From a virus (lineage: Duplodnaviria; Heunggongvirae; Uroviricota; Caudoviricetes), in IMG/VR virus record IMGVR_UViG_3300033153_005726, positions 1 through 64,000 of that record: a DNA stretch of 64,000 nt. One strand, given 5' to 3'. Shown in pieces: positions 2,891 through 64,000 of the stretch. The first letter of the stretch is position 1. Each line of letters opens with the position of its first letter. The notes below the pieces were generated by a model. The model worked only from the letters and a program-made list of their open reading frames with translations, was not told where the DNA came from and did not search any database. A program made the position numbers and the translations under genes.

Positions 2891-2921
2891 AAGTAACTTG
2901 GCAGGTACATTAAAGGTATAA

Positions 2922-3498: not shown

Positions 3499-3680
3499 TG
3501 GATGATATACTGATTACACGCACCAATTTAAAACCAGAAGAAAGATACATGTGTCATTGCCAAAAAGGTTTAATTACATATACAGATATCCCTGCTAGAG
3601 ACAGAATACAATGCCCCAAATGTCTACTGTGGTATGAAGTGTACGATAATAAGAAGGGTAGAGGGGTACAGGTGCTATAA
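3498..3680 (+). CDS. small zinc-ribbon protein (CHC...CPKC)
   Basis: Cys pairs; ATGA-type coupling to neighbours. Confidence 0.4.
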   Translation: MDDILITRTNLKPEERYMCHCQKGLITYTDIPARDRIQCPKCLLWYEVYDNKKGRGVQVL

Positions 3681-4681: not shown

Positions 4682-5244
4682 AACAATGTACTCGTTGTAA
4701 TACAAATAGAGAGTTAGAAAAATATAGGAAATCATCTTCCTGTAAAGATGGTAGACATACTATTTGCAATAAGTGTAAGAAAAAATACAGTAGAACTAAA
4801 ACAGGTAAAATAAAATCTATTTATGATGATCAACGTAATCATTCTAAAGCGAGAAAGCACCCAATGCCTAATTACACAAAACGAGAATTAATCAATTGGT
4901 GTCTTAAGCAACCTTTATATCATACATTACATACAAAGTGGAAAGCATCAAAATTTTTAAAATCTGCATGTCCATCATGTGATAGAATTGATGATGGTAA
5001 ACCGTACACATTAAATAATTTACAATTAATGACTTGGCAAGAAAATAACAAAAAGAGCCATGCCAACAAATGTAAAGAAGTATTTCAATACGATAAAAAC
5101 ACAAACGGTGTAATCAATAAACATAGTTCTATAGCTATGGCTGGAAAAACAATAGGAATAGCATATCAAGGTATACTTGCATGTTGCAAAGGTACTCAGA
5201 TAACAGCAGGTGGATATAAATGGGGATATGTGTATGAGACGTAA
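4678..5244 (+). CDS. HNH homing endonuclease
   Basis: N-terminal CxxC zinc finger; HNH core CDRIDDGKPYTLNNLQLMTWQENNKKSHAN; C-terminal GYKWGYV-type DNA-binding tail. Confidence 0.6.
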   Translation: MKQCTRCNTNRELEKYRKSSSCKDGRHTICNKCKKKYSRTKTGKIKSIYDDQRNHSKARKHPMPNYTKRELINWCLKQPLYHTLHTKWKASKFLKSACPSCDRIDDGKPYTLNNLQLMTWQENNKKSHANKCKEVFQYDKNTNGVINKHSSIAMAGKTIGIAYQGILACCKGTQITAGGYKWGYVYET

Positions 5245-15649: not shown

Positions 15650-16045
15650 ATGATTATTATAACGAAAGTAGAAACAATCACTGTTGACCGTGATCCTTAC
15701 GAGGTTTTACACCAAGCCATGCCAAATGGTTTTTGCACACCAGATTTAACTGCACCCCCTATGGAATGTGAGGTATTCAGTGAACTCATACACGGTATGC
15801 GTTGGCGTTGGCATGATAGGGACAATGATATTGACATCATTGTAGGTGTCAGTGGCGAAGCGGAAAAGATACTTAACCTTGGGTATGGTATAGTTGAAAA
15901 CCTGAAGAAAGAAACTAACCGCCTTGATGATCTGGTCATGATGCAGGGTATAAACATAAAAGACCAAACCAAAACCATAAAAAATTTACGTGATGCTTCC
16001 TTTTGGCAGCGGTTCAAATGGGTATTCACAGGGGTGACAGAATGA
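15635..16045 (+). CDS. hypothetical protein
   Basis: ORF track; ATGA overlap with thyX start. Confidence 0.35.
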   Translation: MGLFIMIIITKVETITVDRDPYEVLHQAMPNGFCTPDLTAPPMECEVFSELIHGMRWRWHDRDNDIDIIVGVSGEAEKILNLGYGIVENLKKETNRLDDLVMMQGINIKDQTKTIKNLRDASFWQRFKWVFTGVTE

Positions 16046-33819: not shown

Positions 33820-34031
33820 TATCTAACCCCTGCTTCAAATAATTTAGCTCTCATACTATTAATAGTGTCTTTCAACACGACAATATCAGATAACATAGTT
33901 ATCATGATTGCTCTATCCTTAGACAAGAGTTCTTTCACTTCACGCAAATCTTTGTTCAAAGATATTATATTTACATGAGCAGACTTTACATTAAGTCTTA
34001 GCTCTGTAATTCCTGGTTGATAATCATTCAT
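33819..34031 (-). CDS. small coiled-coil protein (possible fibre assembly/chaperone)
   Basis: ORF track; ATGA coupling. Confidence 0.3.
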   Translation of the reverse strand: MNDYQPGITELRLNVKSAHVNIISLNKDLREVKELLSKDRAIMITMLSDIVVLKDTINSMRAKLFEAGVR

Positions 34032-35925: not shown

Positions 35926-35934
35926 TGGTTACCT

Positions 35935-44900: not shown

Positions 44901-46921
44901 CCAGTACCATCGAAAGCAATATGATCAGGTTGGATACTTGTACCTAAAACTACACCATCAAAATTGCGTATATCATCTCTCCAATGTCCACGCAAAGAAT
45001 AAAAATTTACGGGGGCAACTTCAATGCCTTCTAATGTAAACATGGTGTCTGTAAGATTATGAGCATAAATTGTTTCTACATCAAGTGGGGTTAGTATAGG
45101 TGGGACAGATGGTATAAGTCCAATCTGTACACCATCAGGGACTGTAGTATTTGTAACAAAGTTTGCTAGAAAAACACCTGTGAACTCAGTTCCTGCTGCA
45201 TGGCTAGACACCCCAGGCCACAAAGGCCCTGTTATGCCAGAAAAAGCAGCAGCTTTACCCACAGGAGAACCTGCATCATCAGAACCTTGCCAACCATCCC
45301 CTTCAACCCAAAAATAAAGGGCACCATCCATAAATAGTACACCAATACGATCGCCAGCACCCCATGTAATTCCATATGTTACTTGAGAAGCACTATGCAT
45401 GTGTGTCCCATTTACCCCAAAGTAACCCCAACTTGTATCATTAACTCCCACATAGTGAGTATCAAGTTGATACGCTGATAATACACCAATTATATTATTA
45501 GCATTTCCAACTGTTCCTACTACCACTTCAAAGTAAAATGCATCTGAATTAGATGTAGTGCATTGAGCAGTACACCATCCCGCTAAAATAGAAGTTACAG
45601 TTAAATCATTATTACTACCTGTAAAATATGTTGCACTAAAGTCATCGAATACATTAAATTCAGGTATACTTGGATATGAAATTGTTGGTGGGGTAAAATC
45701 TTCAGACCAACGTACTATCCCCGTAGAGATCCTGATTTCGTCCAGATATCCTTCCATGTCCGAAGATGTATATCCTGGCCCTAGTCGTCCTACCGTCACA
45801 GGGTTTGAATGCGTATTAATAGTTACAGATGTTTCTGTTACATCAATAATACCATTAAAATATAATTTTAAATCTGTTCCATCATAAACAACAGCAATAT
45901 GTGTCCATGTATCTACTGGAACGGCAGTGATACCAGTTAGTACCACTACATTGTCACTATACACATTAATACCACCGCCACTAGGTCTAGAAAGATACCA
46001 ACCTGCCATTGAGCCGCCACCCTCACTCTTACCAATAAAACCCATATTTCCAGTATCTGTTGGGTGTATCCAAAAATCAATAGACCACGAACCTGATGAT
46101 AAATCTAAATCTACATGATCTTGCACAGAAAGGTAATCACCAGTACCACCAAAATAAATAGAAGTAGTTCTAAACTTATGTTGATCTATTTCGTGGTGTA
46201 CATCACCAGTAACAGCAATAACATGAGTACTATCAGAATTGTCTTTAAACATGATAGACTCATCAACTGTATTTGACTGAATTAAAAGTTTAGTATATTG
46301 ATCATTCCCACCAATACCTAGAAAACTAGGAACAAATTTTGTTAAATCTCCATCAAGAAAAACACTACCTAATTCATAAATAACATGAGCACCATTTACA
46401 ATAAGTCCTGGTTGTATATCATCTCTGCCAATGACTTCCTCAGATGAAGAATCTGTTAGTTTCCCTTCATATGGAACATACAACCATTCTATGGTTTCTA
46501 TATTGTCTTTTAAATTATGCTCGGCAACAATATACATAAAAGAAACTATCTTTGCATCAAACTGTAAAACACCAGTAACATAAATAAGACCAGCATCAGG
46601 GAATATTAATGAATCATACTCTGCTGGATGGTCAAAATTTACATTACATAGTGAAATCCTGTCATATATATCAGCGTTAAAGTCACCGCCTTCATCTCTA
46701 CATATAAGAGTAATGGATTCATCAGGACAATAGGGAACATCAAGTAGCCAATCACCTGTAGAAATGTCAGCAACAGTGACACCAAGTAATTCTCCAGTAA
46801 CCCTATAATAAGCAAGGATTGTTTTTGCAGCCGAATTACCAGAAGTAACTGTGCCAGACATACGCATTTTTATAGAATTAGAATCAAATTCACTCGAAAT
46901 CCATTTTCTATTAGTTAACAT
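41972..46921 (-). CDS. giant fibre/baseplate protein (1649 aa) with ConA/LamG-like lectin domains
   Basis: ...NAVDFNGSSDVASV... and ...LDEVRISDIERTADW..., ...YLDEIRISTGIVRWSEDF... match LamG/ConA-like patterns. Confidence 0.5.
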   Translation of the reverse strand: MLTNRKWISSEFDSNSIKMRMSGTVTSGNSAAKTILAYYRVTGELLGVTVADISTGDWLLDVPYCPDESITLICRDEGGDFNADIYDRISLCNVNFDHPAEYDSLIFPDAGLIYVTGVLQFDAKIVSFMYIVAEHNLKDNIETIEWLYVPYEGKLTDSSSEEVIGRDDIQPGLIVNGAHVIYELGSVFLDGDLTKFVPSFLGIGGNDQYTKLLIQSNTVDESIMFKDNSDSTHVIAVTGDVHHEIDQHKFRTTSIYFGGTGDYLSVQDHVDLDLSSGSWSIDFWIHPTDTGNMGFIGKSEGGGSMAGWYLSRPSGGGINVYSDNVVVLTGITAVPVDTWTHIAVVYDGTDLKLYFNGIIDVTETSVTINTHSNPVTVGRLGPGYTSSDMEGYLDEIRISTGIVRWSEDFTPPTISYPSIPEFNVFDDFSATYFTGSNNDLTVTSILAGWCTAQCTTSNSDAFYFEVVVGTVGNANNIIGVLSAYQLDTHYVGVNDTSWGYFGVNGTHMHSASQVTYGITWGAGDRIGVLFMDGALYFWVEGDGWQGSDDAGSPVGKAAAFSGITGPLWPGVSSHAAGTEFTGVFLANFVTNTTVPDGVQIGLIPSVPPILTPLDVETIYAHNLTDTMFTLEGIEVAPVNFYSLRGHWRDDIRNFDGVVLGTSIQPDHIAFDGTGAIHELDTCADTSPAGVGDESDIDILCKFKPTDVSKETPQIIYKSGDDTNGVAVALDGSGAIGLFGNANSIITSITVPSSNVQNDTWYNLKCSNTGITLFDNTFVELVSETGTVTSGNGTGQQTVGGVCAGSPVTTTAGAGEYFEGNVANIQIADGGTGGIVFPVGLKIACEIGETGQQCYVEVEKYDIENAQIELWVKIPTLSNTEDTVLRFYFSNTHADNTSYVGLIGSTVAQNVWDSNFIAVYHMVDESGIIIDSTANELHLSLTGGTTVAGMIGNAVDFNGSSDVASVTDASFEITATGLTYEAVIKRAAQTSSLGTITTKGQAGANLGAFMGIPANSDEIQFGTATDYISGGNITTDVLTTIAGVYNGTDTAAGLTLYASGIALSVTETGTFAGFGSSGEPFTIGAQSDDSVVGAFLDGTLDEVRISDIERTADWELLTNKSNTDTLITYSSWAGSTTLKGWDDYVGVVATIDYTDIPTEQTDFPVRISISETSGSTDTDLQYITTELRKSGVLTGTNLITYQFGSDRNGLERFTTDNLIFSANHTLRLTSAMTFTGSGDQVISLPEELRSTLAEDEMSICFWMKCTSLSEIHAIFGTTHTYEITINITTDKKVHIWCGNSSSSQSIQTTTNVVLLDEWMHIVHTRNWTDLTWSIYINGVLSITAAMNVYGPTAGSAPIELGANSQASNFIGSLSDFYIFDTDLSADDIAFIYKNTVLPTYTDIFTVNLFNSVHTTFPLFLDESITAIDITLDDKNETIGLAFTIDHDTYYVYESAAWRAVASTDDAIHGDTGDSDWHYRDGVDVWQKSLNSANFALSAAFEYVINYNTKTQVDALTVTEFDTLFDSTVGVFDVAVGIKTSTDFVLPEFTKIRYNNSDSWSSEVYDLEPYDGIIVFSQVNWSYTSILGDSHIKVYVMKTGDTSWIECTNGLAVPGITAAMDTIGIEIQFKMVLDLDIQANPDDVFFEFILN

Positions 46922-50800: not shown

Positions 50801-52087
50801 GTTACCTTCAATGTTATTTTTTATCTGTCCATCACCTATATCCCATATAGAATACCATTTACCACCAGCAAGGAAATCTATTTTCAAACTTCCTGGTTGT
50901 GGTAATGGATTGCAACTAAATGTGTAAACAAATCCACGATTATTGGTATCAATTATAATGCCACCAGTTTCAGAAATCTGTTGAGGGGCACAAGCGGGAA
51001 TGTATACAGCAGATCCAGTACCAGAAGAAGTAATACCAGCATCACCAAAAGTGATAATACCTGTATCATATGCTATAGAACCTATTATAGTCCCGCCTAC
51101 AGATGGTGTCCATATATTATTTTGCCCATCATCTTCCAATGCCAGACCACCAGTCCAGCTAAAAGTTTTTGGTAAAACTCCCTCACCGATAAATAATTTA
51201 GCATTAGTGCTTATGCTATATTGAATACTTCTGGTAACAGTTGTTTGTGCATCCTCTGTTTGAATCATTGGTGCTATAGAAACACCAACTCCAGCATCTG
51301 TAATAGCAGTTTCTGAAGCTGCTGAAGGAACTAAAGCTGTTTGTATATCATCTACTTGTATTTGCAATTCACCAGCATTAGCATTTTCAAGTAAATTAGA
51401 AACACCATAATAACGAGAAGCATCTGCTGCAACCGTAGTATATATAGGGGTACTTTCCATATTATTCCAATCATAATAAATTTCAGCCCCATCAAGGTCA
51501 TTTGCTAATTGAGAACCTAATGTGATAGAAATATGATTTCTATAGTAGACATTCTCATCGTCTGTATAAAATTCAGTGAGTTCTGAAGATAAATCTATTA
51601 TACGGACATACTGTTCTGTCACACCTTCACCTAAAACAAGTACATCTCCTATTTCAGGGATAGGCCAATTTGCTAAAGTGATACAAGAAAGAAACGCAGT
51701 GCCAGCATAATGATTGCCCCATAATTTAATATTGGCACTTGGTCCTTTTACAAGATATGCTTCTATACGATCACGAGCATCCTCACGTACACTAAACCAA
51801 TCTTTATTAGAAAAGAAGCAAACCGACACATTAGGGTCTTTTGCCTGTTCAGTTATAATTGTGTGCGAACCATAGTACGTTTCTCTATTTGCAGTTTGTA
51901 CAGCAAGGTAAGCTTTACGCATTGATACCCGACCATATACACGATCAAGTCTTGAAATATCTGGAAACAGATTATTAACAACCCCATCAACAACTTCAAT
52001 AGAAGTCATTTGGCCACCACCTTGATCAGTATCATCAAGACGCTGTGATTCCATTAATTTAATATCTTCTTTATTTATGTCAGCCAT
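47840..52087 (-). CDS. giant tail tip / baseplate hub-like protein (1415 aa; Tal-like position downstream of TMP and Dit-like gene)
   Basis: Position and size; no motif-level confirmation. Confidence 0.4.
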   Translation of the reverse strand: MADINKEDIKLMESQRLDDTDQGGGQMTSIEVVDGVVNNLFPDISRLDRVYGRVSMRKAYLAVQTANRETYYGSHTIITEQAKDPNVSVCFFSNKDWFSVREDARDRIEAYLVKGPSANIKLWGNHYAGTAFLSCITLANWPIPEIGDVLVLGEGVTEQYVRIIDLSSELTEFYTDDENVYYRNHISITLGSQLANDLDGAEIYYDWNNMESTPIYTTVAADASRYYGVSNLLENANAGELQIQVDDIQTALVPSAASETAITDAGVGVSIAPMIQTEDAQTTVTRSIQYSISTNAKLFIGEGVLPKTFSWTGGLALEDDGQNNIWTPSVGGTIIGSIAYDTGIITFGDAGITSSGTGSAVYIPACAPQQISETGGIIIDTNNRGFVYTFSCNPLPQPGSLKIDFLAGGKWYSIWDIGDGQIKNNIEGNESLGSGSVNYDTGSVSITLGAMPDVDSQVLFFWAKPSELYDLSGETLPLKYEFTTENDGVARNTFVFTWVGDGNGPGPANEYGIVDDGNSLLQDAEYDFGDATTWIASTSYELTDEVLPITKNGYTYECTVAGTSNSSEPTWPIVPGSTVDDGGVTWECQLADIGDWSPAASPITVGSIKYATGEVELQPAASQSTPVASEVFTISYNYGDPFTDVFEAPPRDGLGHIHLTLTNTPIVPGTFNILWHTDLEEYDPETRIDMTIDPIYFFKDDGAGNFAGDIDDGSDNWVQGTINYTTGEIMYHPDRISVFPHAVYDWMVTEWMHPGVVESYVFDYIEYLPAASTFPADGSVTCSYCTTDGANFDTYSGTIAPTYTIKPDKYLEIIPGGLHISAAGQHIVDGTNGNLYTHVDGIVGNKTQVGTVNYAQKTFTIISDSINIASMEIDFCAGSGVIDPTMTLVFRAPGAPIRPGSAFIRGTTGGGTLIEGQSDFSGDITGAGIVGHVNFSTGLCKVSFGTWVLDDAEAQAADWYNANTESGGNVWKPYVVRASTILMNCVITSYLPLDPDLLGLDPVRLPLDGRVPIFRDGYIIVVHYSVSSTGEDLGGPQGDDLLSRDASQIDDWEGNPCATQNNNNTLPLAVDHKVEIITDAGATLYPNRDLIEVYALPTAFDTLNGDLTCPKYVPEAGEYTVNLEPLDGTGDDDIRTASVTFLAGFPDNGGTGFGTAHNAMYDGQSTPRDVVILSRIEDMCLASDVQVTGHIAITSALTHSYPADGTLVSSVLPSADLQARAYNEFEQSVWDGTWSDERIDAEPLASYNFVDYPITVTNAPSIKERWLIKFTSTTKVSVIGEKFGVQSLGIVDGNPVDEVKVAELTSEEITAIRAKGAYPGNVSGVYGYPGELDPLCLIIHNKQFPINEEKGITTTNQSYFVIKLDGFGSSWATGNCIRFNTDAANFPLWFIRTTLQAPPTEPVDYYTIQIRGDSS

Positions 52088-53508
52088 TACTGTACCCTCT
52101 TAAATTTTATATGACCACAATCAAATACCCTGCTAAACCCATTATTACGCATATTCTGAATTTCAGTTAAATCTGCATCAAACAAATCCAATTTAGCAGC
52201 CAGTTTGTTTTTCTGGAATTGTTGCCTTGACCCTAAGTAAGAACCCCCATGCACATAAAAATAATTCGGCTGTGTTACTTTATCTAATATAAACCCATTA
52301 TGCGTATAGGAACTTCCAGTGTATACACGTTGATCAACATAAGAATATGTTACCGTGGAATGTGCTAAGAGCCTAGAAAACCCACCAAGTATTGTTGTAT
52401 TTCTTGCTACTACATATCTGACTAACTCACCATCACTAGCTACTATAAGTAAAGCTGCTAATCTCTTCCCTGATATTAATCCTAAGTAAGATGATCCAGA
52501 ACGGAACCCATGTAAATGATGTTTTTCACAAAAATTTCTTGCTACTTTTGGTTCTACTGCCCTTAATTGTAATTTTCTAGCGAATAACCTTTTTTTATAC
52601 ATCCCTAATTTGTTTAAAATAATAGATTTTACTATATCTTTCTTATGCTTCCACTCAAAATCCCAAAACTGCATTAAATGTATATCAAGTGCAGCACATG
52701 CATCTGTTTTATTTTTATGGTACAATTTCCCCTTACCTGTATCTTCTGAGTGCCAGTAAATACCATTATATTCTATCGCCAATTTAAAATCCGGTAAGTA
52801 TAAATCAAGTTCTTTAGGTGCTATTATTTTTCTAGAACGTTCTATAACATGCACATCAAGAGAACGCAACCAAGTGACTAACTCAGATTCACCTTTAGAT
52901 TGCAATGTAGCACATTTTGGGCAGCACCAACCACGCATGTGGTTGGAAGCTATTTGGTCAAATACACCATGATCAGGACATACTATTTTAACAGTGGAAT
53001 GTGTAGTGGTATAAACAACCAAAGAATAATCATACTTATTTCCGTGAATGGCTTTAGACTTTTTAATAAACCCTTCAGTAGTGCCACGCAGGGTATTCCC
53101 ATTGAACTGTAAAGCACACTGTTTACATCCCTTACCACTAGTATGCCCACCAGCCCTTTGTCTAAATCCACCGTGCACAGGACATATTATAATAATAAAA
53201 CCACCATATCCATTGTACACAACTTTTGAATAATCGTATTTATCTCCATGTACTTCTTTAGCTTTTATCAAAAATGAATCAGTGCAATCTTTATTATTAA
53301 CAGAATTGTTTATGTCGGCACATTTTCTACACCCTTGTTTCATATTTATATGGGCAGAAGCTCTCTGAATAAAACTACCATGTACAGGACAAATAATAGT
53401 TACCATAGATTTAGAAGTACCTACAACAGAATCTGAATAATCAAAAATAGTGCCATGTATTTCTTTGGCCCATTTTATAAAATTCTCTGTATTCCATTTT
53501 TTACGCAT
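52087..53508 (-). CDS. DUF559/Vsr-like PD-(D/E)xK endonuclease with three N-terminal zinc-ribbon repeats (homing-endonuclease-like), embedded in the tail module
   Basis: Three repeats of xKAKExHGxKYDYSxVVY...ICPxHGxFxQ...H..GxGCxxC; then ELDLYLPDFKLAIEYNGIYWHS matching the DUF559/Vsr core; TAATG overlap with downstream gene. Confidence 0.55.
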   Translation of the reverse strand: MRKKWNTENFIKWAKEIHGTIFDYSDSVVGTSKSMVTIICPVHGSFIQRASAHINMKQGCRKCADINNSVNNKDCTDSFLIKAKEVHGDKYDYSKVVYNGYGGFIIIICPVHGGFRQRAGGHTSGKGCKQCALQFNGNTLRGTTEGFIKKSKAIHGNKYDYSLVVYTTTHSTVKIVCPDHGVFDQIASNHMRGWCCPKCATLQSKGESELVTWLRSLDVHVIERSRKIIAPKELDLYLPDFKLAIEYNGIYWHSEDTGKGKLYHKNKTDACAALDIHLMQFWDFEWKHKKDIVKSIILNKLGMYKKRLFARKLQLRAVEPKVARNFCEKHHLHGFRSGSSYLGLISGKRLAALLIVASDGELVRYVVARNTTILGGFSRLLAHSTVTYSYVDQRVYTGSSYTHNGFILDKVTQPNYFYVHGGSYLGSRQQFQKNKLAAKLDLFDADLTEIQNMRNNGFSRVFDCGHIKFKRVQ

Positions 53509-53517
53509 TACTTATCC

Positions 53518-54198
53518 CTAATCTACTGTGCAAGAACCATTTGGTCCTGTTACAGTATCACCAGAAGAAATGGTTCCTAATGCAACATATAATTGTAAAG
53601 TCGGGTCAGAAAAGCCCATTACGGTACCTATAACAATGGGATCACCATCACTATTAATAGTTTCACCAATATCGAATGTACCAGAAACAATTGTAACAGT
53701 TAAAGTTACATTTGCAGTACATGGTGAAGATGCTGAAGGTATTGCTTCCATAAATTTCAAATTTCTGACCTTATACCAAGCGGTCTGTTCAAAGTTATCA
53801 AATCGCAGAACATTCTCCAATTCAAGGGGAGGCGGTTCATAATGGCGAAACATAACATCATATTGAAATAATACATTACCAGTATAGGCACTGTCAACAT
53901 ATTTTTCATAACTCAAAACCATTGTACAACCAGCCGTATCCCGTAACTGCAATAGCTGTTCGCCAACACTGCGTTGAATCCAACCCATGTCATCTTTACC
54001 TTGCAAGGTAATAGGGCGTCCACGTAACTGGGTAGATTCTTGAATTACTAAAGCACCAGTAAGGGTAGTCTCAATAGTTTGTTGTACAGGTGCCCAACTA
54101 AATTCATCAACCCATTCCAAATCTTGTGGTAGTCGTATATCGAAAGATGGAGCATCACATTGAAGTCTCCACACATAATCTTCATAAACTATTGCCAT
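53518..54198 (-). CDS. tail component immediately downstream of TMP (distal-tail-protein-like position)
   Basis: Gene order only. Confidence 0.3.
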   Translation of the reverse strand: MAIVYEDYVWRLQCDAPSFDIRLPQDLEWVDEFSWAPVQQTIETTLTGALVIQESTQLRGRPITLQGKDDMGWIQRSVGEQLLQLRDTAGCTMVLSYEKYVDSAYTGNVLFQYDVMFRHYEPPPLELENVLRFDNFEQTAWYKVRNLKFMEAIPSASSPCTANVTLTVTIVSGTFDIGETINSDGDPIVIGTVMGFSDPTLQLYVALGTISSGDTVTGPNGSCTVD

Positions 54199-54199
54199 G

Positions 54200-57100
54200 C
54201 TACGACCTCATCTTTGCTAATGCTAAATCATTAAGTATTGAATCAATACCAGCTTGTGAACCATATAATTCTTCATGCTGTGTACCATTCACTGTTAATT
54301 CAAGTGAATGTTTAACTGATTCTAGAGCGGATTGTCGTACACTATTTTGTACTGTGCCAACAACACCACCAAGATTGAATCCAGGGATCTTAAAGTTGTT
54401 TAGTGCGTCAAAGAAACCAGCACCAAAGTGAGAAACAACGCCCTCTTTCATTACAAACTCGCCAGGGGTGAGAGCCGCCATAATTGAATCTTTTCCTGGA
54501 ATTGATGTGCTTGTATGCGGTACAGAACCACCAGTATTAAAACCAAATAATCCTTTACCAAGACGTTTTAATAATTCTTCAATTGAAAATGTTCTAGCTG
54601 TGCCAACTTCTTCTTTCATATCAGTGGCAGTATCCAAAGCTTTTAATGTATCTTCAGATGATTCACTAGCTAACTTATCTTGAAGGGCAGTTAATTCAGT
54701 TTGCGTTTCTTCTTTTTGTGATTCTGCATCAGTCTCAGCAGTAGCAGAAGCAGAAGCAACAGCATCTTCATAAGATGCAAGTAGGGAAGTCAATGAATCA
54801 GCGAGCGACTCATCAGCAGAATCAACAGAATCATTATAGGATTCTAAATAATCTGCCATGTCCTCTGCATAAGATTCATTCTCATCAGTATTACTGCCAT
54901 CATAACTTTCTAAATAATCAGCTAATGCTTCAACATGATCTTCATCGCGATCAGTTACATCTTCAGCATGATCAGTTGTATAATCACTCCAATCATCATC
55001 ATAATTAGTTTTAGCTTCATCATATGCGGCTTGGGCTTCATCAAGTTCAGCTTGTTTATCAGCCTCTGAAATAATCAAAGCAAGTGAAGAAATATCCTGG
55101 GTACCAGCAATAACGCCAGAAGTATTTGTTATTCCAAGGTCTTCTAATGAAGATAGTGATGAAAGCCAAGTAGACCACTTCTGGGCAGCTTCTTCTAAGG
55201 CTGTTTCTTTTTGGGTGGCGGCAGTGGCGTGATCAATACCATTTGCCATTTGTCTAACCCAATAACCCTCAATGGCACGTTCGTATGTACTCAAATCAGG
55301 TACATCGTACCCTTCATATGGATATGTATTGGACTCACCTCTCCAAGTACTAGTATCGCCATAGTTTCTGCCAGAAGTATTTATGTCTTCGGCAGCTTCA
55401 CGGGCACTGCTACGTGCATCTATTAAATCACCCCATAATTCATAATACTTATCTTTGTATTCATCATCAATATCAGCTTGCTCTTCTTCATAATCATCAA
55501 GGTTATCATTAGAATTTTCATCATAATCTGTTTCAGTATCAGTATAATCCTCAGTATCATCATCTACTGTATCATTATAAGACTCATTCTCATCTTCAAC
55601 ACTATCATCATATGTTTCTTGAGTATCGCTAAGTGTATCAGTGTTACTCTCATCCCTGTCATCTACAGATTCATTATAACTTTCTTTAGCATCTGCAACA
55701 GATTCATCATGATCTTCAGTGGTATCTACTACATCCTCATCATACTCAGCAGTAAGTGTAGCGATTTTTTCTTTTAATTCCTCAGAAATGGCAAGTAGGG
55801 CTGCTTGTTCTTTTGCAAGGATGGCAGCTTGCTCATAACTATCGCCTTGATTAGCTTTAGAAATTAAATCATCATAAATAATGTTGATTCCTTTCGTAGC
55901 ACTATCAAAATCAATAGTATTTATACTACCGCCATAAGCATAGCCATTCACTGTACTCGTAAAGGCATCTGTAAGCCTGTTCACTGACTCAACACCTAAT
56001 TCACTGGTAATGTCCTTTGAACTATTTGCGACCGTATTTTGAAAGTTTACGCTGTCTACATTAAGGTTAACGTCACGGCCTACTTCAGAACCAAACAATT
56101 CATAAAGGCGTTTTTTCATTGAGCCAATAACACCAGAAAGAACAGAACCACCACGTGCGAAATTCTGCACCACACTTGATGAGTCAAAATCAAACTGGAC
56201 TGGTCCACCTTTAGCGAAATGAGGTACGGCCTTCTTTGCCATCTCAATTGGATATGAACCTGAGTTGACCATATCCATAAAGCGTTTACCATATTTCTTC
56301 ACAGCAGCTACTTTATGAACAAACTCACCTTTCATCAGCATGGCAGGTACATCATCTTTACTACCACCACCCCTTGTTATGAATGGGTTGGCAAGTTTTC
56401 TGAATACACCGCCACCTGCATCAAAACCTTGTATTTCTCCACCATGTGCTCTAGCTTCAGAAGGTGGTGACCCTTCAGTTTTATATTTAGTGGTGATGGT
56501 GATAGTTTTATCTTTCAACTTATCAATAGCACTTTTAAGTTCACGGACTTTGTCAATACCAGTTACCTTTGCTATCACTTCTACAGTTTTGTTTACTAAA
56601 GAATCTATAAGCTGTTTTAAAGTAACAACATCCTCAGTGCCAGTTACATTTGCAACAACATCTACAACTGTAGGATTAGCTTGGTCTATTAAACCTAACC
56701 ATTCCTCAAGGGAACGCATATCATCAGAACCATTCACTTTCACATTTACTGTAATATCAGTGCCACCACCAAGTTCTTCTAACTGAGCAACAAACTCAGT
56801 AAAGTCCTCTTGAGAAAGTTGGATTGTTACTTCTGGCACTTCATCTCCAATAGCATTTAGTTTTTCTTTTATTTCATCTATCTTTTCAGTGGCAGGGGCA
56901 GCAGGAGAAGCAGCAAGTAGTAACTGGCCAGTAACCTCAAATGTCTCACCAGCTAGGGTCTGTAATTCAACCTTAGCTTCGTCAACGCCTTCAGTATTAA
57001 CAGCAAGCATTACACCTTCTTCTGGTAACACTTTAGGTAATTCTTCCAGGTCTTGCGTAGCTTTTTCTGTATCAGCCTCAACCTCCATTGTGACAGGTTC

Positions 57101-60100
57101 TTCGACAACCTTTTCTTCAACGTCGTTTACTATTTCTTCAGCTTTATCAGCAGAATCTTGTAACTTTTCTTGATCAATAGTAACTTCTTTTACAATAGGT
57201 TCTTTTAATTTATCAGTAGCTTCTATGGCCTTATCGGCATTTATATCAAGCTCACGCTTCTCGGCAGCTAAATCAAGAGAACCGTTTATTGCACCTAAAG
57301 AATTTATTATCTTATCAGTGGCACCTTCAACATTACTGAAAGGTTCAAATGGATTAGATTGAATATTTTTAATAAGACCCTTTGCAGCTTCTTCTGTTTC
57401 AGCAATTATCCTGATAGGCTTTTTATTATCCATAGTTAATTCTATAGACAACCCATCAACAGTTTCAGCATAATTCAATGCAACTTGGGTCATGTCGCTG
57501 AATACCCTGCTACCATCATCACCTACACCATTAAGGGTATTAACTATGTCAACCAATTTCTGTCTGGGGTCTGATGTATCCATACCCTCAAACATAGTAC
57601 TGAACTTATCTTTTATTGAATCAAGTTGCTTTCCATCTTCTTCAGTGAAAGTGAGAACACTATTGGCACGAAGTTTAGCACTTTCTTGACTGACATAACC
57701 AAAATAATCTTTCAGCTTTGCCCTCATGTCATCAATCTTCTTGCCTTCCTTGGTGCTGATCCCACCATCACTCTTTTTAGACTCAGCTATATAAGCAAGA
57801 AACTCTTGTTTAAGTTCACCGTATTTACCTTTTAATTCATCAACACGGGCATACTCTTCAGGCTTGGCAACAGGTGTGTCAGACAGAGTGCGTTTAGCTT
57901 CTGTCAATTCACTCATCAGTGCTTTATATTCAGTAACAGCTTCACGTTTGAATGTAAGTTCTGTTTCCACACCAACTGGTACACTTTCTGGCATAGCATC
58001 TGATAGGGTTTTCTTTACGTCAGATTGTGCTGGTGCCTCAATTGTTATCTTACCATACCAACCTTCACCAGAAGCTACTATTTCTTTAACAGAACCTAAT
58101 TCATCTTTAATGGTTTGGATAGTTGCTTTAGTATCTGACTGGACTTGCTTCATTCCTGTGCTTATACCGTTCCCAACACCACCTACATCACCAGAAGTTG
58201 TATTAGCAGTCTCACCAGTTTCAACAAGTGCAGCTTTTGCTTCTGCCATGGCAGCAACAATACTTTCAGCAGTTTCTTGACTAGCATCCCCAATTGCTTC
58301 AAATTCTTTAACTACATTGTCAGCAGCCCCATCGTCAGTACTGGCTGAGTAAGAAGCAGTTTGCCCACTTGCAGTTGTTATTTCACCAGTAGCAGCAGGA
58401 TCTTCAGCAGACTTTTTCTGAACCTCATCCAATTTACCTAGCAATTTTTCGTACAAGGCTAATTTTTTCTCATGTTCCAACACCTCTGTTTTAATGTTGT
58501 CCATCTCGAGTGTGTGGCGGGCTGCTTCTGCTTCTTCAATAGTTGTGTACAATTCTCTGTGCACACCCATTTCATCAGCAATTGATTCCCGCATTTCTTC
58601 TCTTGCATCAATCAAATCTTGCTGTTTCTTAGTTACATCTTCCGCAGCCTTTATTTGTACTGTAGCAAGTGCTTCTTCAGAAACACGTTTCTTTTCTATA
58701 GCTCCCTGCTCTGCTTCATAATCACCTACACCCTTCAAGCCACCTTCAGCTTTTTTGAGTACATTTGTGGTTCGAGCCATGGCACTTACAGATTGATTTA
58801 TGTTGCTGTAACCTTCAGCCAAATCCATTGCTTGTTCGGCCTTTTTCTTACCACGCTCTATGATTCCTTTATCATTCTTTTTGATACCTTCAGCAATGAG
58901 GTTATTGGCCTCACCTATTTTTTGTCTGTAGGCACTTTCATCATCACGCTCTTTTTCCCTGTCAGTCATTCCTTCTTGACGGCGCTTTCTTATCTTATCT
59001 TCAAGAGAATCATCAAGTGCAGCAATAGAATCACGTAAATCTTTTTCAGCCTCAAGCCTATCATCAGCTTGTTCAGCAAGGAAATCAGTTAATTCTTCTT
59101 CTATCTTCTCTTTATCTTTAGTTGCTTTTTCCCAAATCTTATCAATATCATCAGCAGCATCCTCTTCAAGATCTACGAGGTCTTCAAGTGCATCTTCATG
59201 TGCATTATTTTCTTTTATTAACCTTTTCTCAGTTTTCTTAATGTCATCCTTAACTTTCTCCAACTTACCATAAGCATCGACTGCCATGGATACTAATTTA
59301 GTATAGTGGGCACGATTAAGGTTTTGGATTACAAGTAGCTGTGCCTTTATCTTAGTGTCATTAAGTGTTGGGTTTTCTTTCAGGTCTGCTAAATGTTTCT
59401 GATCAAGTGCGAGCATAGATGCATGGTGCTGTTTTAATGCACTGAGTTTATCTTTTTGTGCTTGAACGAAATTGTTTTTATCTTGAGCTTCAAATAATGC
59501 AATACCCTGTAAACGATCAGCATACGCATTATCAATTACACCTTTCTGGTCATTGTAATGTGTTTCTAAATCAGCGATACGTTTTTTGTATTCAGTAGAA
59601 AGTTGTTGAGTAGTAGATGTTGCATACTCTAAAACAATATCCTGTAACTCTTCTTCAGCTTCCTTGATAGCTTCAGGGTCGGTGCCAGCCTGTTTAAGCT
59701 GGAGAACTCTAGCACTGGCAATATTAATTCTTTCATCAAATGACTTATTAAGGGCTTTCTTTTTCTCAGCGTACCCTTCCTCTTCAGTCTTTGTTTCATT
59801 CTGAACAGCAGCTTCTATTTCTGCATTACGTCTAGCCAATGCATCCGCTATATCATCAACTAAGATATCATAAGTATCAACTATATTTTCAATGTGTTCT
59901 TGTTGATCATCCTCAACCTGTTTATTATGTTGGGTAATAACTTCAGTTTGGGCGTTGGTAGCTGCAGTCTTGGCATCAGTTTTTTGCTGTTCAGCATCAA
60001 TGACATCTTTAAGGTCTACCCCTTTAATGCCAGCCATGTCGTCTGCATGTATTTGAGCAGCAAGATACATGGCAGCTTGAGCTTTCATCTTGGCTTCTAC

Positions 60101-63100
60101 AATAAGACGGTTATGCTCATCTTCGAGGTTAGCATCCCGTGCAGTGGCTTGCTTTAAATCAGCAGTACGTTCAGCCAATTTAGTTTTTATGACTTTAGTA
60201 GCAGCAGTATAAGCAGTGTTGACAGCCTCTACTTTACCTTTAAGCTCATCAGCATCAGATTTCTCATAACCCTCACGCTGAGTTTTTAATGCCTCAAGGT
60301 ACTTACCTTCTGCTGAAAGCATTTGAGTGTGGGCTAACTCAGCAGCAGTAGAATCTGCACCATACATCAGTACAAATCTATCATAGGTAGCCTTACGTAT
60401 TAAATAAGACCTATCGGTAAAATCATGCTCACCGTTTATTTTACGCTCTTTATATTCAGCATCAGTGATTTCATCATTTTCACGTTGCCTTTGCAGTTCT
60501 ACATAATACGCTTCATAGACACTTTTAAGTTTAGCGATACGGGCTTCATCTTCCTTTATTGCTTTTGCAGCATCACCAGAACTACCAGCACCTAATTGTT
60601 GTAATTTTTTGTTGTATTTTAATTGCAACAAGAACGTTTGCTTAATAAGTTCGTCTTTATCTTTATGTTCTTTCTTAAGTGCAGCAGCTTCTTTTTCATA
60701 AGCAGTAACCGCTTTCATGATACCTTTAGCTATTGCAACAGACCTATGAGCAACAGCACGTTCAGTTAAATCAGTGATCTTATTGATCTCATCTTCTTCA
60801 ACTGTGGCAGCTTCTTTATTGATTCTAAACACTTCACTCATGTATACTTCATAAGCTTGTGTCTTTTCTTTCATAACATCAGAATCAGAAAGACCACCTG
60901 CTGATTCATCTAACTTGGCAAGTTCTTTAATTGCTTTCACACGTTGATCGTACACATTCGTAGCTTCATCGTATTCATCAATTAATTCTTGCTTACGTTT
61001 ATCTATACCTTCAAGGACTTCCCCATTAACTAATTTGTATACATCCCTAAACTTTTCTAAAGAAGCCAAACCAGTAGCTTCTAATGTTTTTATTTCTTTT
61101 TCATTATAAAAAGAATCGAATGGAGAATCAAAATCAAGGTTTTCTTTATTAAACTCTTTTTTCCAAGTCCCAATAATTCCTTCAGTAGCTTCTTTTATTT
61201 TAGATTCAGCACTTGCAGCAGAGTCAACTATTTTATCAAAAGCAGCCGACAAGAAATTAATTTCTGATTCCCCTAAATCTAATGTTTGTATACCCTTTGT
61301 AAATTCTTCTATAGAATCACCAGCAGCATGAGAAGCTTTAGCATAAGCAAGTAGCCCTGCTTTAGAAGTAGCTTGCATCTTAAGTGATTCACCTAAAGCA
61401 TCTTTGTACCCCTGCAACTCAGTCCTAAGTTTATTTAGATTAGCACCTGAAGAACTGAAAAACTTTTGCATAGTAGTGCCAGTGGCTTCAATTTCTTCAA
61501 ATCTATCTATATCTTCTTTTAATTTAGTAACCCAGTAAGAAGCAGAATCCACTTCTTTTTTTGATTCACGTAAAGCGTCTGCAAAAGACTTTACCCCTAG
61601 TTCAGCTTTTCCCTGACTCAATTCTTTTTGGACAGCTATATATTTACGAAGTTCGTCTAAATTAGCAGTAGTTTCTTCAGTTACTTCTGCCATAACTTCG
61701 CCTTGTTTATTTAAAGACAAGGTAGTAGCTGGTACTACTTTTCCAAGTTCTATTTCAGCTTCTATCCAAGCTGCTGAACCTTTCTCACCTTCGGTAAATA
61801 CTTTTTCTAGTTCTTCAAGGGATTTTATCTCAGAATTCAATGCATCTACAACTACAGAAGTCTTCTTTGCTAATTCTAAATGGTCTTCCGCTGTTTTGCC
61901 GACTATAGCTTTGTACGCAAAAAAACCAGCTACAGCCACAGCTATAACGGCACCAATGCCAGTAAACATCGTAGCAATCCCAGCAAAACCAATAGTGGCA
62001 GTTCCAGCAGCAGCACCAGCAGCAGTTGTGGCAGTGGCAGCAGTGGCAGCACTACCTGTCAGTGCAGCAAATCCCACTGCTGCTGTTCTTAGCACTGTTA
62101 TTAAACCAGTAAAATATGTTGTAAGAAATTTAACAAATCCCCCCGCCCCTGATATAGCACCAAACAAGGTCATGATCTTAAACAACGCTGTGAAAGCAAC
62201 AGCAGTGCTAAGAAGAACTTGCATAAGGACTTTATTCTCAACAACTAGTTTACCTACTGCAATGGCAATCTCACCAAAAATAGCAGCGATGCCAAGCATA
62301 TCACTTGCCCAATCAGCCAACTGTACTTTGTTTTCTCTAATTGATTTTGTTAATCCACGTATAAATTCTAATACAGTAGGTTCTATTTCACGCCCAAACT
62401 CAATCGCCATTTCTTGCCAAGCAGATTTAATCTGACGTAAAGCACCACCCATACCAGCTTCCATATCACGGGCAACCCTAGCAGAAACTCCTTCAGAATT
62501 CTGCATGGAAACTAAGAATGTATTAAGTGCATCTTCACCTTGATTAATCAAAGCAGCCATTCCAGGTCCAGCACGCTTACCAAAGATTGTGATGATGTCA
62601 GAAACATCTGCACCAGCAACCTTAAATTGATTGAGAATGTCAATCATAGAAAGCATGTCACCACTTGAATCTGTTACTGAAATACCAAGTGTTTCAAGTG
62701 ACTCACTAACTCTCTTAGTAGGCTCAAGTAAACGGGTAATCGCATTACGCAGTGTCATACCAGCTTTAGATGAATGGTAACCAGCTTGAGCCAGACCAGC
62801 AAGTAATGCACCAGTTTCTTCAAATTCTATATTTGCAGCAGAAGCCAGTGGACCAACATACTGAAAAGCAGTACCAAGTTGCTCAAGGTTTGTACTGGAA
62901 CTTGTAAATCCTGTGACAAGTACATCATTGATGCGTCCTAAATCATCAACTTCCATTTTATAACCACGTAGAATGTTCGTGGTTATATCAGCAGCCCTGC
63001 CAATATCCATCATGCCAGCAGTAGCTAATTGGAGTACGTTAGGAAGTGCACCTATGGTTTCTTCAACAGAAAAACCAGCCATTGATAACTGACGAGCTGC

Positions 63101-64000
63101 TTCAGCCACCTGAGAGGACGTGTAACGTGTGGTTGCACCCAAATCACGTATTACTACTTCAAACTCTTTTAATTGTGCTGAGGACGCTTGTGCGGTCGCA
63201 CCAGCAGCTCTGAGGGCATCATCAAATGTTGAAAGTTCACGTATAGCACCTTTTACAGCAAACACCGCTGCAAAAGAAGCAGTGAATCCCGTCATGGTGC
63301 TTAATCCAGCATTGATAGCTGAGAGTCCACGAGATATACCATACATCTGCCCATTAAACTTACTCATCCCAGCAGATGCAGATGCAGCAGCATAGCCAAA
63401 TTTAGATATAACAGAACGTGTCTTAATAAGCTTAACATTAGCACTGCTGGTAGCTGAAGATACTTTATTTAAATCTGAAGCGAATGTTGCGAATGCTCTA
63501 AGTTTACCTGCTCTATCAAGCTCACCAATAGCCGCAGAAAGCTCACGCATTTTTTGTGCTATAACATTTATATCAAGGTCTTTAATTTTGACAAGACCCT
63601 TAGCCATACTATCCAAATTAGGTATAGATTTGACTTTATCAAATGTCATCAGTTCCTTAGAAAGCCTACCAAAAAATTCAGGGAGATTCTCATTGAATGA
63701 TTCTACTGTAGAAAGTTTTTCTATACCTTCTGCAAAAGGCTTCAGTGCTGGTATTTTAATATCCTTAGTGAAACTGGAAAGTGCGGTACTAAGCTTGGTA
63801 AGGTTAGTAGAAAACTTATCAGTAATATTAAGGGCAGTAATGTCCTTGATACCTTTAGCTATCCCACCAAGACTAGGGACCTTAACCTTTGAGAAAACAT
63901 CTAAAGCCTCAGCAATGGCTATGAGTTTTTTAGAAAACTTCTCATCTATAGTGCCTATTTGCTTTAAGTCTTTAAACCCGTCAGCAAAGTTCTTAAGGTT
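54200..64000 (-). CDS. tail tape measure protein, 5' partial: reading frame stays open upstream of Met 63649 to the window edge (more than 3266 codons)
   Basis: TP901-type TMP core LGATTRYTSSQVAEAARQLSMAGFS...GRINDVLVTGFTSSSTN...QYVGPLA; Ala/Gly-rich hydrophobic segment; long coiled coils; duplicated C-terminal GG..VPA.L..GEFV motif; no in-frame stop between 63650 and 64000 on the - strand. Confidence 0.8.
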   Translation of the reverse strand, partial: NLKNFADGFKDLKQIGTIDEKFSKKLIAIAEALDVFSKVKVPSLGGIAKGIKDITALNITDKFSTNLTKLSTALSSFTKDIKIPALKPFAEGIEKLSTVESFNENLPEFFGRLSKELMTFDKVKSIPNLDSMAKGLVKIKDLDINVIAQKMRELSAAIGELDRAGKLRAFATFASDLNKVSSATSSANVKLIKTRSVISKFGYAAASASAGMSKFNGQMYGISRGLSAINAGLSTMTGFTASFAAVFAVKGAIRELSTFDDALRAAGATAQASSAQLKEFEVVIRDLGATTRYTSSQVAEAARQLSMAGFSVEETIGALPNVLQLATAGMMDIGRAADITTNILRGYKMEVDDLGRINDVLVTGFTSSSTNLEQLGTAFQYVGPLASAANIEFEETGALLAGLAQAGYHSSKAGMTLRNAITRLLEPTKRVSESLETLGISVTDSSGDMLSMIDILNQFKVAGADVSDIITIFGKRAGPGMAALINQGEDALNTFLVSMQNSEGVSARVARDMEAGMGGALRQIKSAWQEMAIEFGREIEPTVLEFIRGLTKSIRENKVQLADWASDMLGIAAIFGEIAIAVGKLVVENKVLMQVLLSTAVAFTALFKIMTLFGAISGAGGFVKFLTTYFTGLITVLRTAAVGFAALTGSAATAATATTAAGAAAGTATIGFAGIATMFTGIGAVIAVAVAGFFAYKAIVGKTAEDHLELAKKTSVVVDALNSEIKSLEELEKVFTEGEKGSAAWIEAEIELGKVVPATTLSLNKQGEVMAEVTEETTANLDELRKYIAVQKELSQGKAELGVKSFADALRESKKEVDSASYWVTKLKEDIDRFEEIEATGTTMQKFFSSSGANLNKLRTELQGYKDALGESLKMQATSKAGLLAYAKASHAAGDSIEEFTKGIQTLDLGESEINFLSAAFDKIVDSAASAESKIKEATEGIIGTWKKEFNKENLDFDSPFDSFYNEKEIKTLEATGLASLEKFRDVYKLVNGEVLEGIDKRKQELIDEYDEATNVYDQRVKAIKELAKLDESAGGLSDSDVMKEKTQAYEVYMSEVFRINKEAATVEEDEINKITDLTERAVAHRSVAIAKGIMKAVTAYEKEAAALKKEHKDKDELIKQTFLLQLKYNKKLQQLGAGSSGDAAKAIKEDEARIAKLKSVYEAYYVELQRQRENDEITDAEYKERKINGEHDFTDRSYLIRKATYDRFVLMYGADSTAAELAHTQMLSAEGKYLEALKTQREGYEKSDADELKGKVEAVNTAYTAATKVIKTKLAERTADLKQATARDANLEDEHNRLIVEAKMKAQAAMYLAAQIHADDMAGIKGVDLKDVIDAEQQKTDAKTAATNAQTEVITQHNKQVEDDQQEHIENIVDTYDILVDDIADALARRNAEIEAAVQNETKTEEEGYAEKKKALNKSFDERINIASARVLQLKQAGTDPEAIKEAEEELQDIVLEYATSTTQQLSTEYKKRIADLETHYNDQKGVIDNAYADRLQGIALFEAQDKNNFVQAQKDKLSALKQHHASMLALDQKHLADLKENPTLNDTKIKAQLLVIQNLNRAHYTKLVSMAVDAYGKLEKVKDDIKKTEKRLIKENNAHEDALEDLVDLEEDAADDIDKIWEKATKDKEKIEEELTDFLAEQADDRLEAEKDLRDSIAALDDSLEDKIRKRRQEGMTDREKERDDESAYRQKIGEANNLIAEGIKKNDKGIIERGKKKAEQAMDLAEGYSNINQSVSAMARTTNVLKKAEGGLKGVGDYEAEQGAIEKKRVSEEALATVQIKAAEDVTKKQQDLIDAREEMRESIADEMGVHRELYTTIEEAEAARHTLEMDNIKTEVLEHEKKLALYEKLLGKLDEVQKKSAEDPAATGEITTASGQTASYSASTDDGAADNVVKEFEAIGDASQETAESIVAAMAEAKAALVETGETANTTSGDVGGVGNGISTGMKQVQSDTKATIQTIKDELGSVKEIVASGEGWYGKITIEAPAQSDVKKTLSDAMPESVPVGVETELTFKREAVTEYKALMSELTEAKRTLSDTPVAKPEEYARVDELKGKYGELKQEFLAYIAESKKSDGGISTKEGKKIDDMRAKLKDYFGYVSQESAKLRANSVLTFTEEDGKQLDSIKDKFSTMFEGMDTSDPRQKLVDIVNTLNGVGDDGSRVFSDMTQVALNYAETVDGLSIELTMDNKKPIRIIAETEEAAKGLIKNIQSNPFEPFSNVEGATDKIINSLGAINGSLDLAAEKRELDINADKAIEATDKLKEPIVKEVTIDQEKLQDSADKAEEIVNDVEEKVVEEPVTMEVEADTEKATQDLEELPKVLPEEGVMLAVNTEGVDEAKVELQTLAGETFEVTGQLLLAASPAAPATEKIDEIKEKLNAIGDEVPEVTIQLSQEDFTEFVAQLEELGGGTDITVNVKVNGSDDMRSLEEWLGLIDQANPTVVDVVANVTGTEDVVTLKQLIDSLVNKTVEVIAKVTGIDKVRELKSAIDKLKDKTITITTKYKTEGSPPSEARAHGGEIQGFDAGGGVFRKLANPFITRGGGSKDDVPAMLMKGEFVHKVAAVKKYGKRFMDMVNSGSYPIEMAKKAVPHFAKGGPVQFDFDSSSVVQNFARGGSVLSGVIGSMKKRLYELFGSEVGRDVNLNVDSVNFQNTVANSSKDITSELGVESVNRLTDAFTSTVNGYAYGGSINTIDFDSATKGINIIYDDLISKANQGDSYEQAAILAKEQAALLAISEELKEKIATLTAEYDEDVVDTTEDHDESVADAKESYNESVDDRDESNTDTLSDTQETYDDSVEDENESYNDTVDDDTEDYTDTETDYDENSNDNLDDYEEEQADIDDEYKDKYYELWGDLIDARSSAREAAEDINTSGRNYGDTSTWRGESNTYPYEGYDVPDLSTYERAIEGYWVRQMANGIDHATAATQKETALEEAAQKWSTWLSSLSSLEDLGITNTSGVIAGTQDISSLALIISEADKQAELDEAQAAYDEAKTNYDDDWSDYTTDHAEDVTDRDEDHVEALADYLESYDGSNTDENESYAEDMADYLESYNDSVDSADESLADSLTSLLASYEDAVASASATAETDAESQKEETQTELTALQDKLASESSEDTLKALDTATDMKEEVGTARTFSIEELLKRLGKGLFGFNTGGSVPHTSTSIPGKDSIMAALTPGEFVMKEGVVSHFGAGFFDALNNFKIPGFNLGGVVGTVQNSVRQSALESVKHSLELTVNGTQHEELYGSQAGIDSILNDLALAKMRS

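Follow-up and report, generated by a model that had tools for sequence, protein, structure and literature searches.

The 64,000-nucleotide (nt) stretch of DNA analysed here (the window; positions 1 to 64,000 of the IMG/VR virus record IMGVR_UViG_3300033153_005726, from a virus of the Caudoviricetes) ends within a very large gene on the minus strand that encodes a TP901-family tail tape measure protein (TMP). Read on this strand, window positions 54200-64000 contain 3266 sense codons closed by a stop at 54200-54202, and no other stop interrupts the frame up to the window edge; the Met at 63649, where the list of open reading frames (ORFs) begins the gene, is codon 118 of the TMP frame, and the 351 nt upstream of it are still open. 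A homologue search of 5.8 billion proteins returned a number of relatives together with a JGI metagenome protein of 3875 amino acids (aa), P0001, which comes from a contig of 86,423 bp and shows 100% identity over the entire in-window TMP sequence. Because P0001 is identical and 3875 aa long, we take the full gene to comprise 3875 codons, 609 of them beyond the window edge, with a predicted start at about window coordinate 65827. An earlier sequence-only reading of this stretch had called a tape measure gene that runs past the window edge, and both calls stand: the protein matches PF10145 (E=6.6e-45, 153.9 bits against a cut-off of 33.2), the TP901 tape-measure domain of NCBIfam, TIGR01760 (219 bits against a curated cut-off of 28.8, E=6.9e-65), and 20 PHROG families annotated as tape measure, and an in-frame stop just past 64000, which would have spoken for a separate gene there, is excluded by the identical P0001. 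The four largest antisense ORFs within the gene match no family and are treated as spurious. We think it likely that this TMP belongs to a long-tailed, non-contractile phage of ~86 kb with a tail of ~550-680 nm, and that a strongly acidic domain near its C-terminus, built from 11-residue repeats, is the tip-proximal end of the ruler.

The C-terminal part of the protein carries one motif twice, as DDVPAMLMKGEFV at aa 3158 (window 56318-56356) and as DSIMAALTPGEFV at aa 3780 (window 54452-54490), and each copy sits in a module of the same plan, in which GG repeats are followed by the motif and then by KYG/FG-x-x-F-x-x-x-N. Since the two modules align with each other in BLASTP at E=9e-9 (32% identity over 128 aa), they are an internal duplication. 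The duplicated GG..VPA.L..GEFV motif claimed in the sequence-only reading is thus borne out, with two copies here and two also in the TMP of mycobacteriophage Douge. The second module terminates in ...LNDLALAKMRS, where AlphaFold2 places strands at model aa 741-757 and a helix at 759-775 with low predicted local distance difference test (pLDDT) values. No Pfam or NCBIfam model covers the C-terminal module region. A search with the C-terminal 776 aa gave only five proteins and missed known relatives, and was replaced by an exhaustive profile search. At E<=0.001 this search finds the motif region in 12,957 representative proteins, and over 25 cluster representatives match a 774-position profile of the dual-module C-terminal region along its entire length. 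Defining a dual-module protein as one with two paralogous GG...VPAxLxxGEFV...G..F...LN modules that lie 300-600 aa apart, the second ~95 aa from the C-terminal end, we find this architecture in 70 of 191 collected proteins, the TMP described here among them, and hence in at least 70 TMPs from metagenomes. A single copy of the motif, ~105 aa from the C-terminus, is present in many relatives and in the 1377-aa TMPs of ~80-kb marine Vibrio siphophages, and this single-copy form is presumably ancestral.

Only one entry with a solved structure matches the motif (E=4e-8 and 7e-7), namely the 1699-aa TMP of Douge, gp16 (PDB 8ZDO and 8ZDQ). In gp16 the motif, D-S/V-x-x-A-x-L/V-x-x-G-E-F-[IV]...KYG..F.., likewise occurs twice, at 973-1028 and 1421-1474, ~450 aa apart, and module copy 1 of the present TMP matches both occurrences (E=4e-8); the structure resolves only the last 42 residues of the protein, and the motif is outside the resolved part. 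Douge differs from the phage considered here in that its second motif copy is ~225 aa from the C-terminal end rather than ~95, that no comparable acidic domain has been reported for it, and that its host is a mycobacterium. The nearest isolated carriers of the motif are marine Vibrio siphophages such as V-YDF132 and 1.215.A (44-49% identity over ~50 aa), whose TMPs differ in having a third of the length, one C-terminal module and no inter-module repeat domain. A megablast search of the TMP gene against isolated phages gave no DNA-level match, and tblastn against isolated phages found only the single motif, in Vibrio phages, and the generic core domain, in hundreds of phages.

Between the two modules lies a domain of ~450-530 aa with 25.5% Asp and Glu and 6% Lys and Arg. 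Its two acidic blocks, A and B, are separated by a neutral, aromatic-rich stretch of ~125 aa; the most acidic 100 aa of block A have a net charge of -44, and one 50-aa stretch of this block is 50% Asp and Glu and contains neither Lys nor Arg. We find that both blocks are periodic. Successive Tyr or other aromatic residues are spaced 22, 22, 11, 11, 7, 11 and 11 residues apart in block A, and aromatics in block B are spaced 22, 4, 11, 7, 4 and 22 apart. The aromatic period-11 score is 16 against 3.9 expected in block A (matched in 0 of 5000 permutations) and 13 against 3.3 expected in block B (matched in 2 of 5000), while the same test in both blocks shows no enrichment of periods 7, 9, 10, 12 or 13; over the whole inter-module domain the period-11 signal reaches z=6.8. 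Hydrophobic residues follow a related rhythm, with spectral power at 3.667 residues (11/3) of 2.73 in block A and 3.22 in block B against 0.17 expected (p<0.0005), and without a peak at 3.5 residues in either block. When block A is written in rows of 11, two positions form a core and the other nine are polar or acidic. Here the sequence-only reading had described a low-complexity segment of ~300 aa rich in Asp, Glu, Ser, Tyr and Thr that might be metal-binding, an unstructured spacer or a decoy; its acidity and the peptides quoted from it are confirmed, but the segment is not featureless, consisting instead of two blocks with a strict 11-residue period.

The number of repeat units appears to have changed by tandem duplication or loss, a change supported by two observations. 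Block A of P0001 contains 22 aa, or two units, that are extra in comparison with five homologues (P0002, P0004, P0005, P0007 and P0042) and that are present in P0049 and P0052, and a 33-bp tandem repeat lies in or beside this extra stretch. The same domain of the five homologues shows the period-11 signal (z=2.5-6.8) and is mildly acidic, with net charges of +2 to -44. None of the other dual-module proteins in the set of 70 is as acidic as P0001 (net -105); P0052 (-95), P0049 (-87) and P0057 (-65) come next. Aligned residue by residue with P0001, P0049 is 58-62% identical in block A and 48-70% identical in block B, values that equal or exceed the 30-50% identity of the flanking non-motif sequence; module copy 2 is 62-80% identical. 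Because the blocks of P0049 align in this way, at or above the identity of their flanks, the acidity is an inherited and conserved trait of a sub-lineage (P0001, P0049 and P0052) and not a one-off expansion. Of the statement that such a segment is unusual for TMPs, the part that concerns the extreme charge therefore holds, but a homologous domain is present in at least 70 TMPs, mostly in mildly acidic form, and P0052 and P0049 come close to P0001 in charge.

An AlphaFold2 model of the C-terminal 776 aa, built as a monomer from an alignment of seven sequences, contains helices at model aa 232-292, 300-388 and 478-623, with pLDDT of 70-86 in blocks A and B. These predicted helices, the 11-residue aromatic and 3.67-residue hydrophobic periods and the conservation in P0049 and P0052 together speak against an unstructured spacer. 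The coordinates of these and other features of the gene are collected in Table 1.

Table 1. Features of the tape measure gene in window coordinates; aa numbers are those of P0001 unless given as in-window.
Feature	Residues	Window position	Strand	Basis or remark
TMP gene, in-window part	codons 610-3875 of 3875	54200..64000	-	open frame, identity to P0001, family matches
~42-aa repeat KVPNLKxFAEGxxxL, last 4 of 16 copies		63503..64000	-	motif positions 41-44 aa apart
TP901-family TMP core domain	in-window aa 284-466 (PF10145); in-window aa 245-579 (TIGR01760)	62603..63151	-	PF10145 and TIGR01760
Hydrophobic segments after core	~1174-1311	61898..62305	-	Kyte-Doolittle
Charged central ruler region (~1800 aa)	~1311-3100	56528..61897	-	composition profile
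C-terminal module, copy 1: GG repeats, DDVPAMLMKGEFV, AAVKKYGxxFM..N	~3125-3300	55928..56455	-	invariant alignment columns
Domain between the module copies	~3301-3754	54566..55927	-	helical, 11-residue period, net charge ~-103 to -105
Acidic block A	3356-3470	55418..55762	-	register Y-x-x-S-V-x-D-x-x-E-S
33-bp tandem repeat in block A, 2.3 copies, 76% match		55537..55612	-	Tandem Repeats Finder; duplicated 11-codon units
Acidic block B	3596-3700	54728..55042	-	aromatic period 11
C-terminal module, copy 2: FNTGG, DSIMAALTPGEFV, FGxxFFxxLNNFKIP, then beta-hairpin and helix	~3755-3875	54203..54565	-	

A minority of TMPs has been described to carry repeats of 11 residues (or of 11-11-18) in which Trp or Phe is the marker (PMC3271669). 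In the TMP of phage TP901-1 such 11-residue repeats fill the C-terminal half, and deletion of a unit shortens the tail (PMC5099701); replacement of one unit by alanines had no effect, which suggests that the period outweighs the side chains (PMC5099701). With respect to the aromatic spacings described for such repeats (11, its multiples, or 18; Belcaid 2011, Mahony 2016), only period 11 is enriched in the protein described here (p<=0.0004). Its acidic domain is best read as a Tyr-marked, acidic counterpart of the known 11-residue TMP repeat that the published pattern misses. The 937-aa TMP of TP901-1 is also similar in its overall plan, with a core domain, hydrophobic segments after the core, 11-residue aromatic-marked repeats in the C-terminal half, a C-terminus of short beta structure and helix, and a gene directly upstream of the tail-tip genes. 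Compared with it, the present TMP is ~4x longer, has an N-terminal array of 16 repeats of 42 aa, uses Tyr rather than Trp or Phe as the marker, is almost purely acidic or polar in its repeats outside the two core positions, and has its C-terminal module duplicated around the repeat domain. Searches of the literature turned up no relevant work on acidic domains in TMPs or on DNA mimicry by them.

Towards the N-terminus, the 16-copy array spans aa ~85-775 of P0001; AlphaFold2 renders it as helix-loop-helix units at a mean pLDDT of 39, too low for the fold to be used. The segments after the core have Kyte-Doolittle means over 19 residues of 1.6-2.1 at aa 1174-1228 and 1277-1311 and are probably membrane-inserting. 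No family covers the central ruler region, which gives only partial matches to PHROG TMP families and shows a hydrophobic period of ~3.6 residues in the two stretches sampled. The combination typical of TMPs, hydrophobic segments in a mostly helical remainder, is thus present, as seen in the hydropathy peaks, the helices predicted at the C-terminus and the amphipathic period of 3.6-3.67 residues.

The sequence-only reading had placed the protein among the longest known TMPs. At 3875 aa it is indeed very long, but the claim is overstated: the first homologue search already gave relatives of 4036, 4552, 4727 and 4777 aa, and proteins with the same C-terminal motif reach 4971, 5284, 5493, 5762 and 6311 aa in the exhaustive profile search. 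The TMP gene of Thermus phage P74-26 has 15,021 nt (~5006 aa), so the present protein is no record. The TMPs of P74-26 and P23-45 resemble it as giant proteins that specify non-contractile tails of extreme length (in P74-26, from 875 nm to nearly 1 µm). They differ in an annotated metallopeptidase domain, and they are not among the sequence relatives found here. Within the family, variation in length resides largely in the N-terminal array of ~42-aa repeats, of which there are 16 copies in P0001, 9-13 in P0002 to P0005 and 25, over ~1700 aa, in P0007; it seems to be mainly by expansion of this array that TMPs of the group have become giant. We note that P0007, P0176, P0147 and P0103 are TMP-like database proteins of 4777-6311 aa with the same C-terminal motif, and that ~1700 aa of P0007 are made of an N-terminal repeat of ~42-50 aa.

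The genes on its downstream side show synteny with tail-tip genes of a relative. Downstream of the TMP gene are genes for products of 226 aa, 1415 aa, 309 aa ("tail assembly") and 1649 aa (with LamG domains), and the first two of these products share 43% and 58% identity with those of the genes directly after the TMP gene in the locus of the relative P0004 (L004 and L005). Scans of viral and metagenome contigs with the N-terminal 631 aa did not find the source contig, and for this reason the TMP start is taken from P0001 and the upstream context from L004 and L005. In L005 (2381-3090) a gene of 137 aa lies just upstream of the TMP gene; it has a canonical slippery heptamer, A_AAA_AAC, at 2737, with a -1 frame extension that stays open almost as far as the start of the TMP, the arrangement usual for a chaperone pair.

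Several further observations concern the tail module. The 226-aa product (53518-54198, minus strand) aligns only over its first ~151 residues with the 157-aa protein encoded after the TMP in L004 (43% identity) and has an extra C-terminal tail of ~75 aa that adjoins a putative endonuclease insertion. The gene in question, of 473 aa (52087-53508, minus strand), matches PHROG 559 "HNH endonuclease" (E=8e-103) and a homing-endonuclease family, and it lies between the 226-aa and 1415-aa genes; because the homologues of these flanking genes are adjacent in L004 and L005, the 473-aa gene has the look of a mobile endonuclease that has been inserted into the tail genes. Just upstream of it is a promoter-like site agreeing at 11 of 12 positions (53897-53868, minus strand), and promoter and terminator scans of 52000-64000 gave sites no more numerous than in shuffled sequence. 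The 1649-aa tail protein (41972-46921, minus strand) has three LamG/concanavalin-like domains, and its counterpart in L004 (25900-30695) has 3353 aa with Kelch and LamG domains; both are probably large, variable receptor-binding proteins. Three ORFs of 633-665 aa (31822-37884) have no PHROG match. Elsewhere in the window, the sign of the GC skew flips near ~22 kb, and beyond 22.8 kb every large ORF up to the window end lies on the minus strand and looks structural; the plus-strand genes before ~22 kb include those for a DNA ligase (600-1904), an exonuclease (3680-4681) and an SbcD-like nuclease (5210-6154). A plus-strand ORF of 590 aa (16003-17775) is thymidylate-synthase-like at aa 479-578 and HNH-endonuclease-like at aa 296-437, and may represent an intein or homing endonuclease within a thymidylate synthase gene.

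How might such a protein work? In each 11-residue unit, an aromatic residue (Tyr) at position 1 and Val or Leu at position 5 make a hydrophobic stripe that runs straight, like that of an untwisted helical bundle, and in the lineage of P0001, P0049 and P0052 nearly all other positions of the unit have turned into Asp, Glu, Ser or Thr. We infer that three TMP copies would fill the tail tube, as in other siphophages, and would set a tail length of ~550-680 nm, with the last ~40 residues plugging the tail-tip hub. In siphophages the TMP C-terminus is held at the tail tip and the protein is expelled tip-first on infection (PMC13033339). With an exit in this order, the acidic domain, which would form an untwisted helical-bundle segment in the distal ~70 nm of the ruler, would be among the first parts to arrive at the cell envelope. 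As to the acidity, our best guess, a conjecture, is an electrostatic role, in which it might provide solubility and repulsion from the negatively charged tube lumen and from the DNA, with Mg2+ and Ca2+ of seawater as counter-ions. The range of tail lengths comes from three published ratios. Calibration on Douge (0.159 nm per aa, from a 269.6-nm tube and 1699 aa with both motif copies included) gives an estimate of ~615 nm, calibration on TP901-1 (0.146 nm per aa after subtraction of 127 aa, from a tail of 118 nm and a regression intercept of 127 aa; PMC5099701) gives ~550 nm, and calibration on P74-26 (0.175 nm per aa, from 875 nm and ~5006 aa) gives ~680 nm. The several hundred nm proposed in the sequence-only reading are supported to this extent, as an extrapolation from nm-per-residue ratios.

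A number of points weigh against this interpretation. The acidic domain lacks the strict pattern that has been published, a row of seven [FW]-x(10) units or the 11-11-18 variant; the repeat marker is Tyr at 19 of 21 positions, the spacings include several of 22 and one of 7, and the longest run of 11s is two. The C-terminal AlphaFold2 model is weak overall (mean pLDDT 53 and predicted template modelling score, pTM, 0.28, from seven sequences and as a monomer), and neither C-terminal module is confidently modelled in it. Block A might, with a small probability, fold back on block B, an arrangement weighed below. The N-terminal ~690 aa, made of Pro-containing 42-aa repeats, are predicted, at very low confidence, to form short helix-loop-helix units and not one long helix; these repeats may add less tail length per residue, and because their fold is uncertain the true tail length could be lower than our estimates. 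Tail length is in any case an extrapolation, and the source contig upstream of the TMP gene was not recovered. Finally, what we offer for the extreme acidity of this lineage is conjectural.

Other explanations of the acidic domain have different merits. It is conceivable, if rather doubtful, that the acidic helices are a divalent-cation device that folds only with Mg2+ or Ca2+, or that strips cations from the outer membrane or cell wall on expulsion and so aids penetration. The density of carboxylates is very high and they are regularly spaced, the domain is at the end of the TMP that exits first, given the orientation with the C-terminus at the tip (PMC13033339), and a cation-rich setting is probable, given that marine Vibrio are the hosts of the closest isolated phages that bear the motif. 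Yet no known metal-binding motif or family match was found in Pfam or NCBIfam, and homologues with the same domain are far less charged (net -15 to -44) and presumably work.

Somewhat harder to sustain is an arrangement in which the inter-module domain forms an antiparallel hairpin, with block A on block B and the two module copies meeting at the tail tip, so that the ~600-aa extension would be a tip or plug structure adding no tail length; we regard it as improbable. The two helical arms are alike in length (~180 and ~145 aa), the linker between them is variable, rich in indels and rich in aromatics, and the flanking modules are paralogous, all of which would suit a hairpin. In Douge, however, the motif is also duplicated, ~450 aa apart, and yet the ratio is 0.159 nm per residue of the whole protein, which leaves no room for a large fold-back; in addition, a bundle of six helices would be tight in a lumen of ~3.5 nm, and nothing reliable on tertiary structure can be read from the monomer model (pTM 0.28).

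We also consider it unlikely that the acidic segment is an intrinsically disordered, low-complexity spacer without defined structure. Its composition would fit such a spacer, reaching 50% Asp and Glu and 90% Asp, Glu, Ser, Thr, Tyr and Asn within 50 aa, and AlphaFold2 gives pLDDT <50 at model aa 284-302 and 380-414. Disorder does not sit well, however, with the strict periods of its aromatic and hydrophobic residues, with helices predicted at pLDDT of 70-86 across both blocks, with positionwise identity to P0049 of 58-70%, which goes beyond mere likeness of composition, or with the sharing of period 11 by less acidic homologues. In place of disorder we prefer an untwisted helical segment at the tip-proximal end of the ruler.

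Slighter still is the chance that the acidic domain is more than ruler and serves as a payload at the leading end of the expelled TMP, kept by selection in P0001, P0049 and P0052 and acting either by cation sequestration that loosens a Mg2+- and Ca2+-bridged outer envelope or as a DNA-mimicking decoy. Taken by itself, the second of these, a decoy or DNA mimic that precedes the genome and blunts restriction or DNA-sensing defences, is very improbable. Of the features of an Ocr- or ArdA-like anti-restriction protein, high acidity is the one established here. The charge density of the acidic domain is probably above that of known DNA mimics such as Ocr, the TMP is injected ahead of the DNA, and the acidic blocks are conserved in three lineages. 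Against this, we saw no similarity to anti-defence families (PADLOC and anti-defence libraries were not searched), we found no paper linking a TMP domain to DNA mimicry, the period equals that of the ordinary TMP repeat, and this part of the TMP may not reach the cytoplasm. A last alternative takes the giant ORF for an artefact, either a chimera of the assembly or a pair of genes that a sequencing error has joined. Only the size of the ORF and the internal duplication of the C-terminal module speak for it; it has next to no probability and was rejected, the architecture being common to many independent homologues: more than 25 independent cluster representatives cover the whole 774-position profile in one stretch within single proteins of 1638-4222 aa, the order of modules is identical in P0002, P0004, P0005, P0007, P0049 and P0052, and P0004 occurs on three separate contigs.

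The gene described here belongs to an ordinary class, that of phage tail rulers, and lies towards the upper end of their size range. It shows that strict helical periodicity can underlie an acidic tract of apparently low complexity, which bears on the annotation of such tracts. The C-terminal architecture defined here, a duplicated hub-proximal module that brackets an 11-residue-repeat domain, is widespread and uncurated, with at least 70 examples, and its motif occurs in ~13,000 representative proteins, among them that of the structurally studied phage Douge, in whose structure this part is unresolved. The lineage with extreme charge is a test case provided by nature for whether the chemistry of the side chains counts in TMP repeats or the helical period alone, as the alanine replacement in TP901-1 suggests. 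If it were true that the acidity aids penetration of the envelope or counters host defences, this would be a new function for tape measure proteins.

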